Shown: in pieces, positions 1 to 7,869 of the stretch | Layout: each line of letters opens with the position of its first letter | Numbering within the stretch: the stretch's first letter is position 1 | Virus record (IMG/VR): IMGVR_UViG_2778261644_000009 | Reading direction: 5' to 3' (one strand) | Length of the DNA stretch: 7,869 bases | Source: a virus | Lineage: Duplodnaviria; Heunggongvirae; Uroviricota; Caudoviricetes | Position numbers and translations under genes: made by a program | Notes under the pieces: generated by a model | What the model was told of the DNA's origin: nothing | What the model saw: only the letters and a program-made list of their open reading frames with translations | The model's database searches: none

Positions 1-12
1 AATTAGCTACCA

Positions 13-144
13 CCACAGAATTCTGTTAATCTTAACTTTTAAAGAGATTTGTACCCAAACAAAAGTCTGTTACCCCACCTATACAGAAAACTGTTAGATT
101 CAACCACAGAAAACTGTTAGACACCCCCACAGAATTCTGTTACC
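13..144. repeat. Array of five direct repeats (iterons), each with a 12-bp internal dyad ACAGAAnnCTGT followed by TA; putative initiator-binding sites of a replication origin
   Basis: Dyads at 15-26 (ACAGAATTCTGT), 59-70 (ACAAAAGTCTGT, degenerate), 83-94 and 106-117 (ACAGAAAACTGT), 129-140 (ACAGAATTCTGT); each preceded by a C-rich stretch; centres 20.5, 64.5, 88.5, 111.5, 134.5, i.e. 22-24 bp or multiples (about two helical turns). Window starts inside or just before the array, so it may extend upstream. Confidence 0.6.
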
Positions 145-148
145 TATT

Positions 149-206
149 AGATCATTTATTAAATTACTTATTAAATTATAATATTATATATTTATTTATA
201 TGATCT
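149..206. promoter_or_regulatory. AT-rich block, putative DNA-unwinding element of the origin
   Basis: About 46 bp of almost pure A/T (155-200) immediately after the iterons, flanked by inverted 6-mers AGATCA (149-154) and TGATCT (201-206), each with a GATC site; tandem TTATTAAATTA at 156-166 and 168-178. Confidence 0.4.
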
Positions 207-375
207 TTTGCCTTCCGGCGTTAAGCTTCACTCCCTGGCAAGCAGCCTTACTCCGCTACCTTTGGGCTTCGTGGCTGGCCCGTTCCGCTCACACCGAAAG
301 CAAAGCGTTACTTTCTTCGTGTAACTATCGTTGGCGGTAACGCCCACGAAGAAATACTATTGCGCTGTGCGCAGA
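207..375. other. GC-rich hairpin-dense island; candidate structured RNA or single-strand initiation/packaging signal, function unknown
   Basis: GC-rich in an AT-rich context, no ORF. Nested stem-loop: TTTCTTCGTG (312-321) pairs with CACGAAGAAA (345-354), enclosing GGCG-GTAA-CGCC (333-344, GNRA-type tetraloop). CTTCGTG also at 267-273. Small hairpin TGCGC-tgt-GCGCA at 361-373. Confidence 0.3.
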
Positions 376-437
376 AGAGTAATCACCTAACCAATCATAC
401 TGATTGCTTACGTGTTAACTCTATCTCTCTACCTCTT

Positions 438-595
438 AATTCCACTTCCTACATTCTGTAGTCGTGTAATTACTCGAAGAGAGAGCGGCTAAAGCTCAAT
501 TACACTCTGCTTTCCTCGTGTAATTTCACTAAGCCTCAATACAATTCCACTTCCTACATTTAATAACTCTCGTTATTCTCTGTAGTTGTGTAATT
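438..595. repeat. Two copies of a composite direct repeat: AATTCCACTTCCTACATT followed by CTGTAGTYGTGTAATT, the second copy with a 24-bp insertion
   Basis: Perfect 18-mer at 438-455 and 543-560. CTGTAGTCGTGTAATT at 456-471 and CTGTAGTTGTGTAATT at 580-595. YGTGTAAYT also at 318-326 and 517-525, and inverted (AATTACAC) at 498-505, giving mutually exclusive pairings 464-471/498-505 or 498-505/518-525. Confidence 0.6.
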
Positions 596-1107
596 GTTTT
601 CGGTGGAAAAGCCAGAGGCGACACCGAAAGAGAATTCTGATCTTATTAATCTTATCTATCTTAGTTAATCTTCTTACTTATCTTACTTACTTTATCTACT
701 TTATTATTAATAATAGCTTTATAAGCTCTCTGACGCAAGAAACAGAGTTCAGGAAGGGAATCACCTTAGAAAAGTGTTCTTTGCGTCATAATGTGTTTTA
801 TGAAGGATTCAGAGGTGTTTCATAACAGGAGTGTATAGAGGATACTTTAATTAATTAAATATAAGGGGTCTAAATGCTTCTCTAACAGCATTAAGCAGGG
901 TAGGGAATGGAAACGCATTGCCTACATATATAATCTCACTACAGGGCTTTACAGAGCGTTTTATAAAGTGACTCTCTATCTTATATCTACCATTACCTTT
1001 TCATATACCTAACAAATACAAAATAAGCCCCTTAAATAAGCCTCTGGCGAGCTAAACAACCTCTACATAAGAGAATGTATTGCTTTTATCAAAACTTCGT
1101 TAGAACG

Positions 1108-1127
1108 CGTTTTAGAGCGTTTTAGAC
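1108..1127. repeat. Perfect tandem duplication GCGTTTTAGA x2 (candidate operator) upstream of the early promoter
   Basis: GCGTTTTAGA at 1108-1117 and 1118-1127; related GCGTTTTATA at 956-965; adjacent 8-bp palindrome AACGCGTT at 1104-1111; about 90 bp upstream of the -35 at 1219. Confidence 0.5.
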
Positions 1128-5565: not shown

Positions 5566-5583
5566 TATTTTAACGTGTAATAG

Positions 5584-5618
5584 AGGCGTGGCGTGTATTC
5601 ACGCTTCGCCTTTTTTTT
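5584..5618 (+). terminator. Strong rho-independent terminator after the 342-aa gene
   Basis: GC-rich stem 5584-5595 / 5600-5610 (about 11 bp, one bulge, two G-U pairs), loop TATT, then T8 (5611-5618). Confidence 0.75.
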
Positions 5619-5652
5619 ATTTATTTTTTAAATTTTGAGAGGTGATTAAAAT

Positions 5653-5856
5653 ATGGAAGTGATTCTGAAATCAAAAAATGGTGTACACGTACATTTAGAT
5701 GCTAATGATTCTAGAGGCTTGTTAAATCTGAAATATCTCTGTTCTCTTTTAGATGTTCCATATGAAGGAGTAAAAGCCCGTATGTTCAGACTAAACGAGA
5801 GTATTGATCAGGCTCTACACCATTTCTTAAGTAAAGAAGGTGGTAAAAATGATTAA
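5653..5856 (+). CDS. Small hypothetical protein (67 aa)
   Basis: ATG 5653 with SD GAGGTG (5639-5644) 8 nt upstream; stop 14 nt before the next gene. Confidence 0.55.
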   Translation: MEVILKSKNGVHVHLDANDSRGLLNLKYLCSLLDVPYEGVKARMFRLNESIDQALHHFLSKEGGKND

Positions 5857-5870
5857 TAAGGGGATTTTAA

Positions 5871-7703
5871 ATGTTAGAAATTAACACTTCTAAAATTAAG
5901 AACACAGTTACATTTAGTGTAGATAAAGACAGCTTGAAAAAAGCGAAAGACTCTATTACAGGCTTAAAGGAATTCGCCGAAAATATCAAGCCAGCTAAGC
6001 TGAGATTTGATAGTGTCACTAAAGGCTATAAGAAAGCACAAAGTGAAGTAGACAAGATTGCTCAACAGAAAGCTAAAACAGAAAAACAAAATCAAAGAGC
6101 ACAAGCTGCCGCAGCAAGAGCACAGGCAAGGCAACAGCAACAAATAGCAGCACGTAAAGAGAAAGCAGAATTAAAGCTCCTTGATGTATCAAGCTCTATC
6201 AGTGCAATGCACCGTCTCTCTGTAGCTGAACAATACAAAGCTATTGCACAGGCTAGAGAGATAGCAAAACAATATGAGCAAGGGGCTATCTCGCTTGCAC
6301 GTATGAATAGCCAAATGAAACGCCTACAACAGCAACAACGTAAGATTAATGGCAACAGAAAAGCTCAATTAGCCCCCGTTAAGGGAGGAGGATCAGGGAA
6401 TGCCGCCACTATGGGCGCTCTGTTATTTGGAGGCGCTACAGCGGCTGCTGGCGTGATGGCTGTTAGTAAAACCTCTGAATTTATGGCTAATAGCTTTGCT
6501 AACGCAGATACCCAAGGGGAGCTAATTCAACGTGCCAAGCTGGGCGGTGTAGACGTTAACCAGATGTATAATATTACAGAATGGGCGTATAGAAACGGCG
6601 TTGACTCTATGATGGGTGATCAAGGGGCTAGGAAATACCTGGATCAGATGAAAGATGTTAGGGAACGTGCCGCAAAATCCTACAGTGAAGCTGAATTGGT
6701 GAAAGATAAGAAAACCGGAAAATCTGAATGGAAAGGCGGTGATAACGCTATTAATGAACTTCTAAACATCGGTGTTATTAACAAAAGCGACCTTAAAAAA
6801 TTTGCTGATAATCCGGCTGGATTAATTTCTAAGGCTGTTAATGGAATGATGAAAAAAGGGTTTTCAGACTCCCAAATTGGACAACGTTTAGAAGACCTGG
6901 GCGATGATTTGATGCTTACATCAAAATATTGGCAACGTTCCGTTAAAGATGTACAAGAAAGTATTAATCAGCAAAAAGCCTCTGGAAAATGGCTAACAGA
7001 AACACAGCAAGACTCTATTGTTAAATTCAGAGAACTAAACAGACAGCTTTCACAGCTTTCTGATGCAAGACAAGTAGCATTCGTAGACGGCTTTATGAAA
7101 TCTCTCGATCCAAAAGTAACGGAAGAGTTTATGAAAAACCTTTCTAATCTCACTCCGTATTTTACGAAACTAGGGGAAGCTGTAGGAAGTCTCTTTGAGG
7201 CTATTATGAAGCTTGTAAACTGGTTTAATCGTAATGATGATAAGACAGATGCTATTCAGAAAAATTTAGGTGATGCACCGCCATTAAGCAATGAAGGGAT
7301 GAAACAGCATCTTTCTAATCTCGTTCCTGACCAATATAAAGGCGCTGGAACTGCAACAACTGCACCTGATAATAGTCATTCTCTCTTTAATACAATTAAG
7401 GGATTGCTTTTTGATGATAATTCTTCTGTGTCAGATGTAAAAATGTCAGTTAGTGAAGCACCGATAACCAATCTCAAACAGGGTGCTTTAAATAATCTTG
7501 CAATGACAACTCCGGCTTATAATTTATCTCCTGTGTTTAATCTGAATCCAACGTTTGAAGTGGTAACAGAGGTTCCTCTTACTATTAATTCTGACACATC
7601 AAGATTAAGCGATTATGTGGATTTTACAGCGAGAGCAAGTCGGGATAGCTTCTTGAAATCATTAACATTAACCAGCTTATCAGGACAATCCAACGGCGGG
7701 TAA
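5871..7703 (+). CDS. Large coiled-coil protein (610 aa) with internal Gly/Ala-rich hydrophobic segment; tape-measure-like or ejection/pilot-type structural protein (tentative)
   Basis: ATG 5871 after AAGGGGA; N-terminal 160 aa rich in K/Q/A/R heptad-like sequence (KAKTEKQNQRAQAAAARAQARQQQQIAARKEKAELK); then GGGSGNAATMGALLFGGATAAAGVMAV; no N-terminal signal peptide, no HUH or Walker motifs. Confidence 0.85.
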   Translation: MLEINTSKIKNTVTFSVDKDSLKKAKDSITGLKEFAENIKPAKLRFDSVTKGYKKAQSEVDKIAQQKAKTEKQNQRAQAAAARAQARQQQQIAARKEKAELKLLDVSSSISAMHRLSVAEQYKAIAQAREIAKQYEQGAISLARMNSQMKRLQQQQRKINGNRKAQLAPVKGGGSGNAATMGALLFGGATAAAGVMAVSKTSEFMANSFANADTQGELIQRAKLGGVDVNQMYNITEWAYRNGVDSMMGDQGARKYLDQMKDVRERAAKSYSEAELVKDKKTGKSEWKGGDNAINELLNIGVINKSDLKKFADNPAGLISKAVNGMMKKGFSDSQIGQRLEDLGDDLMLTSKYWQRSVKDVQESINQQKASGKWLTETQQDSIVKFRELNRQLSQLSDARQVAFVDGFMKSLDPKVTEEFMKNLSNLTPYFTKLGEAVGSLFEAIMKLVNWFNRNDDKTDAIQKNLGDAPPLSNEGMKQHLSNLVPDQYKGAGTATTAPDNSHSLFNTIKGLLFDDNSSVSDVKMSVSEAPITNLKQGALNNLAMTTPAYNLSPVFNLNPTFEVVTEVPLTINSDTSRLSDYVDFTARASRDSFLKSLTLTSLSGQSNGG

Positions 7704-7737
7704 TTTCCGCCATAAAATTACAAGGAAAATTATTTTT

Positions 7738-7869
7738 ATGGGGACGGCGGGGATTTTTAACAAAATGACAACAAATACTCCAGACAAAAACGTTCAAGCT
7801 GTTTTATCAAAAAAAAAAAAAAAAAAAAATCACAAAAAAAAAAAAAAAAAAAAAAAAAAAAAATACTTA
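7738..7869 (+). CDS. Possible ORF (3'-truncated by window end) reading through both poly(A) tracts to give poly-lysine runs; very uncertain
   Basis: ATG 7738 about 11 nt after AAGGA (7722-7726); translation MGTAGIFNKMTTNTPDKNVQAVLS-KKKKKK-NH-KKKKKKKKKK-YL...; no stop before the window end. Confidence 0.2.
   Translation, partial: MGTAGIFNKMTTNTPDKNVQAVLSKKKKKKNHKKKKKKKKKKYL
7809..7863. repeat. Two long homopolymeric A tracts: A21 (7809-7829), TCAC, A30 (7834-7863)
   Basis: Directly visible; by far the longest homopolymers in the window. Confidence 0.95.

Follow-up and report, generated by a model that had tools for sequence, protein, structure and literature searches.

The 7,869-nt stretch of viral DNA analyzed here (IMG/VR record IMGVR_UViG_2778261644_000009, Caudoviricetes; the whole stretch is hereafter called the window) is probably the middle part, ~70%, of an ~11-kb integrative phage satellite that resides in the chromosome of Escherichia. 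With the same degree of confidence, sequence comparison points to an integrative satellite whose helpers are Stephanstirmvirinae phages; the model of its particle is held less firmly. We lean, with somewhat less assurance, towards the joint view that the element belongs to a new satellite family that is widespread in Enterobacterales, the first for virulent phages of the phi92/phAPEC8 type, that it would form a hybrid virion, and that its origin is the target of an arms race that would be an independent second case of the kind known from the nuclease Odn. A preliminary description of the window had suggested a small phage, a phage-plasmid or a satellite. The satellite is supported because the element is a self-contained island bounded by attachment (att) repeats, with incomplete virion genes and phi92-type structural homologs; the small phage and the phage-plasmid did not find support.

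A discrete island in the Escherichia chromosome

The window was compared with 5,426 complete E. coli genomes by megablast. It was present as a whole in 195 of them (~3.6%) at 93–95% identity, and parts of it or related sequence occurred in 742 (~14%), nearly all chromosomal; 1,221 of the 1,222 matched places lay in a chromosome. Strains NC101, NGF1, BEN2908 and MRE162 are among the carriers. The complete copies form a discrete island of 10.8–12.5 kb with att repeats at both edges, and both the integration sites and the tyrosine integrases vary. In strain Z0117EC0116, the element interrupts the LysR gene srsR between 52-bp direct repeats with one mismatch; it measures 12.0 kb including a 1.26-kb insertion sequence, IS3, which leaves ~10.8 kb of native DNA. 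In strain KK19-02, the same cargo is located beside a tRNA-Leu gene, the 43-bp repeats are the 3' end of the tRNA, the island spans 12.5 kb, and the integrase differs from that of Z0117EC0116. In both strains, the open reading frame (ORF) that is cut by the end of the window runs on as a 237-aa Dit-like protein and is followed by the integrase, and the flanking genes are ordinary chromosomal genes with no prophage modules or remains.

All full-length relatives carry a tyrosine integrase (PF00589) on the opposite strand, ~0.8 kb past the right end of the window. The preliminary description had reported that recombinase and packaging enzymes are missing; this holds inside the window, which has no recombinase, terminase or portal gene, and the recombinase is missing because the window ends short of the integrase. 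The flanking sequence, which it had proposed to check for integrase, att sites and partition genes, yielded the first two in relatives, and no partition genes were found. The interior of a conventional prophage was rejected, as the flanks consist of ordinary chromosomal genes. The contig itself apparently breaks inside an array of origin repeats (iterons) on the left and at a poly-A run on the right, and a scan of the genome's contigs with the capsid protein found a single locus.

Eleven credible ORFs were found in the window, every one on the plus strand, and they agree with the RefSeq gene calls of ~95% identical E. coli copies; that is, the single orientation and the order of origin, regulators, initiator, unassigned genes, terminated leader and structural-type genes given in the preliminary description are correct. 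A twelfth ORF, the tube initiator, begins at 7738 and continues past the end of the window. All eleven ORFs are intact, with ratios of non-synonymous to synonymous substitution (dN/dS) of 0.06–0.35 against six or seven relatives, a comparison that shows the signature of purifying selection on the element.

Structural proteins related to those of phi92

The preliminary description had found no protein motif that could be tied to a named family beyond RHH/wHTH, and for the structural genes this was overturned by profile searches. The 342-aa product of 4537..5565 (plus strand) is an HK97-type major capsid protein of the family Phage_cap_E (PF03864; E-value 9e-15, 54.9 bits against a cut-off of 22.9, profile positions 14–329 of 329), and it also matched phi92 gp124 in the PDB (4e-6). 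The 610-aa product of 5871..7703 (plus strand) is a tape measure protein homologous to phi92 gp134, with E-values of 1.7e-53 to the tape-measure family phrog_16051 and 2.4e-37 to PDB chain 21vq_V (Phi92_gp134). It is 26–36% identical to the tape measures of Stephanstirmvirinae, and full-length matches were found in no other group. The ORF at 7738..7869 (plus strand) comprises the first ~44 codons of a Dit-like tail tube initiator homologous to phi92 gp135. Its full-length form (237 aa, locus L001) matched PF21821 (3e-29, 101.9 bits, cut-off 24.2) and PDB chain 21vq_N (phi92 gp135; 2e-78), as well as 9cuy_K and 7yfz_a. In a comparison that covered 50,697 phage records, the tube initiator shared 56–60.5% identity with its homologs in Stephanstirmvirinae, and no other phage group exceeded 30%.

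Against the whole genome of the Stephanstirmvirinae phage Mt1B1_P17, the tube initiator showed 56% identity, the tape measure 26% over its full length and the capsid protein 21% over its full length, and the adjacency and order from tape measure to tube initiator are the same in that phage. Besides these and the N-terminal domain of the replication initiator, no further satellite protein had a counterpart in Mt1B1_P17. In phi92, the T=13 capsid has gp124 as its major protein, and the gene directly before it encodes gp123, a beta-tulip cement protein. The tape measure is a trimer of gp134, seen by cryo-electron microscopy in the tail lumen and the baseplate, and a hexamer of gp135 forms the tube initiator at the baseplate center; the tape measure protein exits the tail together with the DNA (PMC13450770).

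The remaining virion genes were searched for with Pfam, PHROG and NCBIfam, and none was found for portal, terminase, protease, sheath, tube, hub, wedge, baseplate or fiber, nor were lysis genes found. Together with PADLOC, these collections recognized only the capsid, the tape measure, the Dit-like protein and the integrase as virion or mobility genes, and no ORF of the element is big enough for a portal. The product of orf120 (4156..4518, plus strand) may be a capsid cement or decoration protein, a low-confidence guess from its position directly upstream of the capsid gene, which is that of the cement gene gp123 in phi92. Its AlphaFold2 model had a pLDDT of 60.6, the best structural matches were to a 'head decoration protein' at non-significant E-values of 0.02–0.06, and Pfam and PDB profile searches were negative. 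Homology of orf120 to the helper cement protein was rejected, as hhalign against the 132-aa phage protein gave a probability of 1.4%. Separately, a 344-aa chain named 'Capsid protein' (9zbi_A) is closer to the satellite capsid (E 4e-12) than phi92 gp124 is.

Origin and initiator are exchanged as one module

The left end of the window, where the preliminary description had placed an origin, contains four iterons of type A, CCACAGAAWWCTGTTA, at 13–28, 81–96, 104–119 and 127–142 (segment 1..144, plus strand), and the window starts within the array. Only 0.05 such iterons were expected by chance, and none of 200 shuffled sequences reached four. The iterons are directly followed by a stretch of 95% A+T (145..200), a likely DNA-unwinding element; every iteron set in the relatives has an A+T-rich stretch next to it. 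The 217-aa product of 1785..2438 (plus strand) matched phrog_270, 'replication initiation protein', at 3e-10 and HTH_36 at 6.5e-4, which is under the Pfam cut-off. It consists of a type-A winged helix-turn-helix (wHTH) DNA-binding domain (aa 1 to ~95), an acidic linker and a constant C-terminal domain that ends in YDDFDIPF.

In blastn comparisons with 14 relatives of the same lineage (lineage 1), the window was ~94% identical except in two segments that are exchanged jointly, namely 1–144, which holds the iterons, and ~1796–2143, which encodes the N-terminal wHTH domain of the initiator. Five iteron types match five types of DNA-binding domain in 15 of 15 loci, including the second E. coli lineage (lineage 2). 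Initiators of type A begin with MINEEQF and are paired with the iteron CCACAGAATTCTGTTA, type B (MINQLTF) with TAGGTCACTGTGAACTA, type C (MSKIKLI) with ATGTAACGATAGGTTACA, type D (MIKNIKT) with CCTAGGAAATGAGTTCCTA and type E (MIKHTKP) with CCCCTATCAAAACTGATACCC. The identification of 1–200 as a putative origin and of the 217-aa protein as its initiator is supported because of this type pairing, the matches to PHROG replication initiators and the adjacent A+T-rich stretch.

The C-terminal ~100 residues of the initiator are constant whatever the type, and the motif Y[ED][DE]FD[IL]PF ends the protein in 114 of 120 protein clusters (YDDFDIPF at 2412–2435 in the window). This tail can be likened to the C-terminal tip of the single-stranded DNA-binding protein (SSB) of E. 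coli, and it also resembles the PPMDFDDDIPF of the SSB of phage Mt1B1_P17 (L021:5862-6794), which has 15 extra residues after this motif. We infer that the tail may recruit replication proteins that bind SSB.

Relatives also hold single 'fossil' copies of the other iteron types. These precede the iterons in use and invariably follow the order C-B-A-E-D (L002:5620-6140, L011:1730-2280, L012:5336-5600 and L023:3075-3260). Locus L002 has two full sets, five D iterons with an A+T-rich stretch and then three B and five A iterons with a second A+T-rich stretch. Past exchange of modules, or repair of cleaved DNA, may have left the fossil iterons behind.

Virulent phages carry satellite DNA-binding domains fused to a nuclease

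The segment 1554..2138 (plus strand; 585 bp), which spans a gene for a ribbon-helix-helix-like (RHH) protein and initiator codons 1–118, is common to virulent Stephanstirmvirinae phages and is the only part of the window that matches phage DNA. It is 99.5% identical to the metagenomic phage contigs L030 and L032 (99–150 kb) and 87–99.6% identical to the phages Mt1B1_P17, BI-EHEC, muut and inny. The phage genes under the match encode 321–367 aa with two wHTH domains and a C-terminal nuclease domain of the T5orf172/MUG113 type. The first wHTH domain is of satellite type A in Mt1B1_P17 and BI-EHEC, E in muut and C in inny, the second is of type D, and the phage modules are 93–100% identical to the satellite copies at the nucleotide level; muut and inny also took the upstream satellite RHH gene, which is intact in both. 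The Mt1B1_P17 chimera is 82% identical to the initiator of the window over 119 aa (98/119), and the first ~84 residues are nearly identical. The nuclease domain of the phage chimeras matched PF13455 (22.5 bits, cut-off 22.3) and phrog_681, 'endonuclease' (2e-18), and was below the cut-off for PF10544.

Seven metagenomic phage contigs (35–150 kb) encode the identical chimera of types A and D, and two of the three that were aligned are 99.5% identical to the 585-bp segment of the window, closer than any E. coli satellite copy. These comparisons show, at the level of sequence, recent genetic contact between the satellite and phi92-type phages. The chimeric gene is present in only four isolated phages of more than 100 in Stephanstirmvirinae, and phi92 gave no match to the nuclease. 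Type B, the commonest satellite type sampled, had a single phage match, of 34% identity. A scan that covered 150,000 of the 151,202 bases of Mt1B1_P17 and allowed up to three mismatches found no iteron of types A–E. In several phages, the RHH gene is intact directly upstream of the chimeric gene (copies of the gene outside the window lie at L003:5013-5180, L006:3013-3195 and L030:3780-3965), and Mt1B1_P17 keeps just the last ~26 nt of it.

A protein of this design is known from phage ICP1, in which Odn joins a copy of the DNA-binding domain of the initiator of PLE, a PICI-like element, where PICI stands for phage-inducible chromosomal island, to a T5orf172 nuclease and cuts the PLE origin in an iteron-dependent manner; PLE escapes Odn by replicon exchange (PMC8263062). 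By analogy, the coliphage chimeras can be read as origin-directed anti-satellite nucleases, and the swapping of satellite modules, with its fossil iterons, as a record of escape from them. Stephanstirmvirinae, virulent myophages of the phi92/phAPEC8 type, are most likely the helpers because some of them carry chimeras of the satellite initiator domain and a T5orf172 nuclease.

Proposed life cycle and alternative explanations

We propose that, in the integrated state, both sigma70-like promoters of the element (see below) would fire into terminators in their leaders, and that infection by a helper would let transcription read through and trigger excision. The initiator would bind the iterons, and its constant C-terminal domain and YDDFDIPF tail would recruit replication proteins of the host or the helper. 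Satellite capsid protein made from the late operon would then form a shell, possibly cemented by orf120, of a size for ~11 kb, in contrast to the T=13 head of the helper for ~148 kb. This shell would be assembled on the helper portal and filled by the helper terminase, and helper tails built around the satellite tape measure and tube initiator would finish the particle. Some helpers would reply with a nuclease that, like Odn, is directed at the origin and has two DNA-binding domains of satellite type; satellites would escape it by swapping the origin together with the DNA-binding module. Because the tape measure leaves the tail with the DNA, we speculate that a satellite-specific pair of tape measure and tube initiator could help to deliver the satellite genome or protect it on entry.

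Several points weigh against this proposal. Induction, excision, replication, packaging and transfer are predictions from sequence. Neither an excised nor a circular copy turned up; those metagenomic contigs of ~11 kb that were checked are chromosomal fragments, and the IMG/VR matches come from isolate genomes. In addition, no small terminase gene, pac site or cos site was identified in the element. Short-word blastn of the satellite against Mt1B1_P17 showed no shared pac or cos site or promoter and no DNA match of at least 20 nt outside the initiator/RHH segment; besides that segment, it aligned only 79 nt, at 73% identity, where the tape measure gene begins. The fit of the satellite capsid with the portal, scaffold and protease of the helper is only an assumption because the capsid is ~21% identical to that of the helper, and the proposal does not account for a tape measure that the satellite itself encodes. 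The phage chimeras could instead be homing endonucleases. Finally, the literature search, which covered open-access papers and bioRxiv, turned up no paper on such a satellite of this phage group.

The element might be mainly a device of anti-phage defense, with capsid, tape measure and tube-initiator homologs acting as decoys or poison subunits in an island that is not packaged. The specificity of these homologs to one virulent phage group would agree with such a role, as would a phage nuclease aimed at the island, which implies that the island costs the phage something, and satellite-borne systems that interfere with tail assembly are known (PMC11364771). However, PADLOC gave no significant match, and the full mobility set of integrase, att repeats, origin and initiator is kept at several sites and on a plasmid. 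A decoy would not need a complete HK97-type capsid gene that is under purifying selection and occurs in all sampled genera, and interference is compatible with transfer, as PLE does both; we consider an island without transfer unlikely. Slightly less likely, in our estimate, is that the true helper is another, unsampled and possibly temperate relative of Stephanstirmvirinae and that the shared DNA reflects occasional recombination in co-infected cells. The structural proteins are only moderately identical to those of known Stephanstirmvirinae (21–60%) and few phages carry satellite DNA, which would suit such a relative; nevertheless, the next best tube initiator among all phage records was at or below 30%, the chimeric nuclease is sensible only for phages that encounter the satellite while infecting, and nucleotide identities of 99.5–100% mean very recent contact.

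A decaying or domesticated prophage remnant that can no longer move would account for phage structural genes without a remaining virion module and for the IS3 insertions in some copies, but it is less probable still, since neither size nor gene order varies from Escherichia to Serratia, copies at unrelated sites, with different integrases, retain intact att repeats, the ORFs are all intact at the low dN/dS given above, the origin/initiator module is actively swapped, and the flanks are free of prophage remains. An autonomous, very small phage or phage-plasmid is highly improbable. The origin, initiator and capsid gene and one copy on an IncF plasmid could be cited for it; the plasmid copy, however, is an insertion into a conjugative plasmid and not a replicon of its own, all other matched places are chromosomal, and no portal, terminase, protease, sheath, tube, baseplate, lysis or partition genes were found.

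If the reading as a satellite of Stephanstirmvirinae is true, an E. coli satellite with a structurally solved helper, phi92, would make satellites of virulent phages far easier to study; such satellites are known mainly from Vibrio (PLE and PICMI, the phage-inducible chromosomal minimalist islands). To our knowledge, a satellite that supplies its own capsid and two tail-core proteins has not been described before, and its own tape measure and tube initiator raise the question of what part they play for incoming DNA. The phage chimeras would be a second, independent case of an origin-directed nuclease, and their recombination joints are visible at 99–100% nucleotide identity, which is useful for understanding how such weapons arise. 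In addition, Stephanstirmvirinae phages (relatives of phi92 and phAPEC8) are therapy candidates against avian pathogenic E. coli (APEC), extraintestinal pathogenic E. coli (ExPEC) and K1 strains, and the islands could alter phage efficacy or move DNA during treatment.

Comparison with known satellites

Functionally, the element is closest to PLE and its helper ICP1, and in gene content it stands between 'capsid-remodelling' and 'capsid-forming' satellites. Like PLE, it is an integrative satellite of a virulent myophage, with an iteron origin, a dedicated initiator and a replicon module that is exchanged between elements, and in both systems a phage chimera of the initiator DNA-binding domain and T5orf172 occurs in some isolates only (PMC8263062). 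No sequence relationship to PLE was detected. The element has a tyrosine integrase, whereas PLE has a large serine recombinase; its initiator is a wHTH protein (HTH_36 / Rep-O-like), whereas that of PLE belongs to RepA_N; and its host range is Enterobacterales, not Vibrio cholerae. PLE remodels the coat protein of ICP1 with the scaffold TcaP; the element encodes its own capsid protein as well as a tape measure and a tube initiator. The coliphage nucleases differ from Odn (Gp88) in that they carry two satellite domains in tandem at 93–100% nucleotide identity, whereas Odn shows 42% protein identity.

Capsid-forming PICIs (cf-PICIs) likewise have their own HK97-type capsid protein, occur in E. 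coli and relatives and use helper tails, as the present element probably does. Their head module contains the capsid protein, portal, protease, head-tail connectors, the small terminase TerS and HNH. The element, by contrast, has a capsid protein and perhaps a cement protein, with no match to a portal, protease, connector or TerS, and it adds two proteins of the tail core; it lacks alpA, has its integrase on the opposite strand at the far end, and apparently uses virulent rather than temperate helpers. The cf-PICIs encode all proteins for small capsids and DNA packaging and steal only tails (10.1101/2022.09.08.507074).

With P4-like satellites, the element shares a size of ~11 kb, integration, enterobacterial hosts and a myophage helper, and the termination of leaders before its operons recalls the termination-based immunity of P4. 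However, homologs of sid, psu, delta, the alpha primase-helicase and cos were not found (Pfam, PHROG, NCBIfam), and P4 uses the capsid protein of its helpers, which are temperate P2-like phages. The PICMIs of Vibrionaceae and the PICIs of Gram-negative bacteria are also small integrative satellites. Classical PICIs have the layout int-alpA-pri/rep-terS/rpp; here only the integrase was found, without AlpA, primase, TerS or Rpp, and its gene lies at the far end and points towards the other genes. PICMIs exploit virulent phages too; they are without capsid-remodelling genes and are packaged as concatemers in heads of helper size (PMC10803314), whereas the present element has capsid and tail genes.

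Other features of the element and its relatives

Between the A+T-rich stretch and the early genes lies ~1 kb without a credible ORF (201..1218), which gave no Rfam match and is a candidate protein-binding or packaging region. It contains GTGTAATT four times (464, 498 in reverse, 518 and 588), the palindrome GCGCTGTGCGC at 362, and GCGTTTTAGA at 1107 and 1117. The equivalent place in lineage 2 (L023:3400-3800) has GTGCAATA repeats and the same palindrome, GCGCTGTGCGC, which suggests that the repeats could be lineage-specific protein-binding sites. Positions 984–1532 are 91% identical even to the divergent lineage 2; within them lie a sigma70-like early promoter, P1 (1219..1247, plus strand; TTGACA, a 17-nt spacer, AATAAT and TG; 11 of 12 consensus positions), and a terminator-like hairpin with a U-run, recognized by folding, in the early leader before the first gene begins (1297..1337, plus strand).

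The early genes are all on the plus strand. The first, orf62 (1358..1546), was found by ORF calling and encodes a small Arg-rich protein that is 87% identical in lineage 2 and has a homolog in Klebsiella elements (dN/dS 0.09–0.31) and no family match in Pfam or NCBIfam. The 55-aa RHH-like protein (1566..1733) was called from a sequence pattern only; its gene showed no amino-acid changes and 0–1 nucleotide differences among the satellite copies compared, of any origin type. Downstream of the initiator, orf92 (2450..2728) encodes a small protein that may be a wHTH protein according to weak matches (dN/dS 0.06–0.31), and orf136 (2856..3266) encodes a protein with a basic N-terminus that is conserved over lineages and genera and had no match in family searches (Pfam, NCBIfam, PADLOC). 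The acidic helical protein orf111 (3268..3603) starts 1 nt past the stop codon of orf136, in agreement with the coupling at TAATATG (3264–3270) that the preliminary description had proposed. NCBIfam and PADLOC gave nothing significant for any of the unassigned ORFs.

The terminated leader that had been proposed before the structural genes was also confirmed. A sigma70-like late promoter, P2 (3633..3661, plus strand; TTGACA, a 17-nt spacer, TAATAT and TG), precedes a structured leader of 285 nt (3662..3946, plus strand) with a perfect 12-bp hairpin at 3793–3824 and an intrinsic terminator at 3849–3886. The minimum free energy of the leader is -79.8 kcal/mol (z = -6.3), and none of 200 shuffled sequences was equally stable. 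Promoter-like sequences occupy the same position in relatives of other genera, and Klebsiella, Serratia and other relatives again have a promoter, a long leader and a terminator in this arrangement; leaders of different genera are too divergent to align for covariation, and this is a comparison of design only. The first late gene, orf70 (3947..4159, plus strand), overlaps orf120 by the ATGA at 4156–4159, exactly as first described. A predicted intrinsic terminator follows the capsid gene (5583..5620, plus strand), and orf67 (5653..5856, plus strand), a small and possibly HTH protein with a dN/dS of about 0–0.08, is conserved in every relative at this place before the tape measure gene. A difference in codon usage between early and structural genes had been overstated; the contrast is marginal (summed chi-square p = 0.004), the GC content at third codon positions (GC3) is 0.322 for the early set and 0.333 for the late set, and the capsid gene alone stands out at 0.42. 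A search of the whole window against Rfam at E up to 1 gave two chance-level matches and nothing more, and a tRNA/tmRNA search of the window found none. The end of the window (7803–7868) reads A21-TCAC-A30 in place of the K/N-rich tube-initiator linker of the E. coli copies, and this tract is either real poly-lysine or an artefact of assembly or sequencing.

Homologs of the capsid protein with 37–64% identity came from bacterial genome or metagenome assemblies only, none of them a named phage; the named sources are Citrobacter, Klebsiella, Enterobacter, Cronobacter, Dryocola, Sodalis and Serratia. The same layout was found in K. pneumoniae, Serratia and two further assemblies, with small ORFs, initiator, unassigned ORFs and a noncoding gap on the left, and a ~70-aa ORF, a ~120-aa ORF, capsid, a ~64-aa ORF, a tape measure of 610–630 aa and the opposite-strand integrase on the right. 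The tube initiator is present in Escherichia and one other relative and absent from the Klebsiella and Serratia copies. Lineage 2 (L023) keeps the layout at highly divergent sequence, with 63% identity in the tape measure and 58% in the tube initiator. At the position of the capsid gene, it encodes a 343-aa protein (L023:8310-9341) with no BLAST similarity to the window capsid and no Pfam match, recognized solely by phrog_29, 'major head protein', at 1e-4.

An element of the lineage-2 type lies inside the conjugative IncF plasmid pEND_Eco 19019-1 (L029, NZ_CP126938.1), where IS3 copies break up its tape measure gene; IS3 insertions were also observed in chromosomal copies (L001, hits H27 and H31). 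Four phages labelled 'Campylobacter phage', A150, A145, C3 and A110a (146 kb; MG065639, MG065645, MG065656 and MG065689), carry a phi92-type tape measure gene of the same identity as in E. coli phages, and their host labels look doubtful. In the K. pneumoniae elements L024/L025 (regions 1968-4083 and 12331-12791), the left arm encodes a Dam methylase and a 205-aa integrase fragment, and small ORFs occupy the place of the Escherichia tube initiator. In Serratia, a 497-aa protein (L026:5144-6637, phrog_2467) replaces the small wHTH initiator; therefore, the replication module differs between genera.

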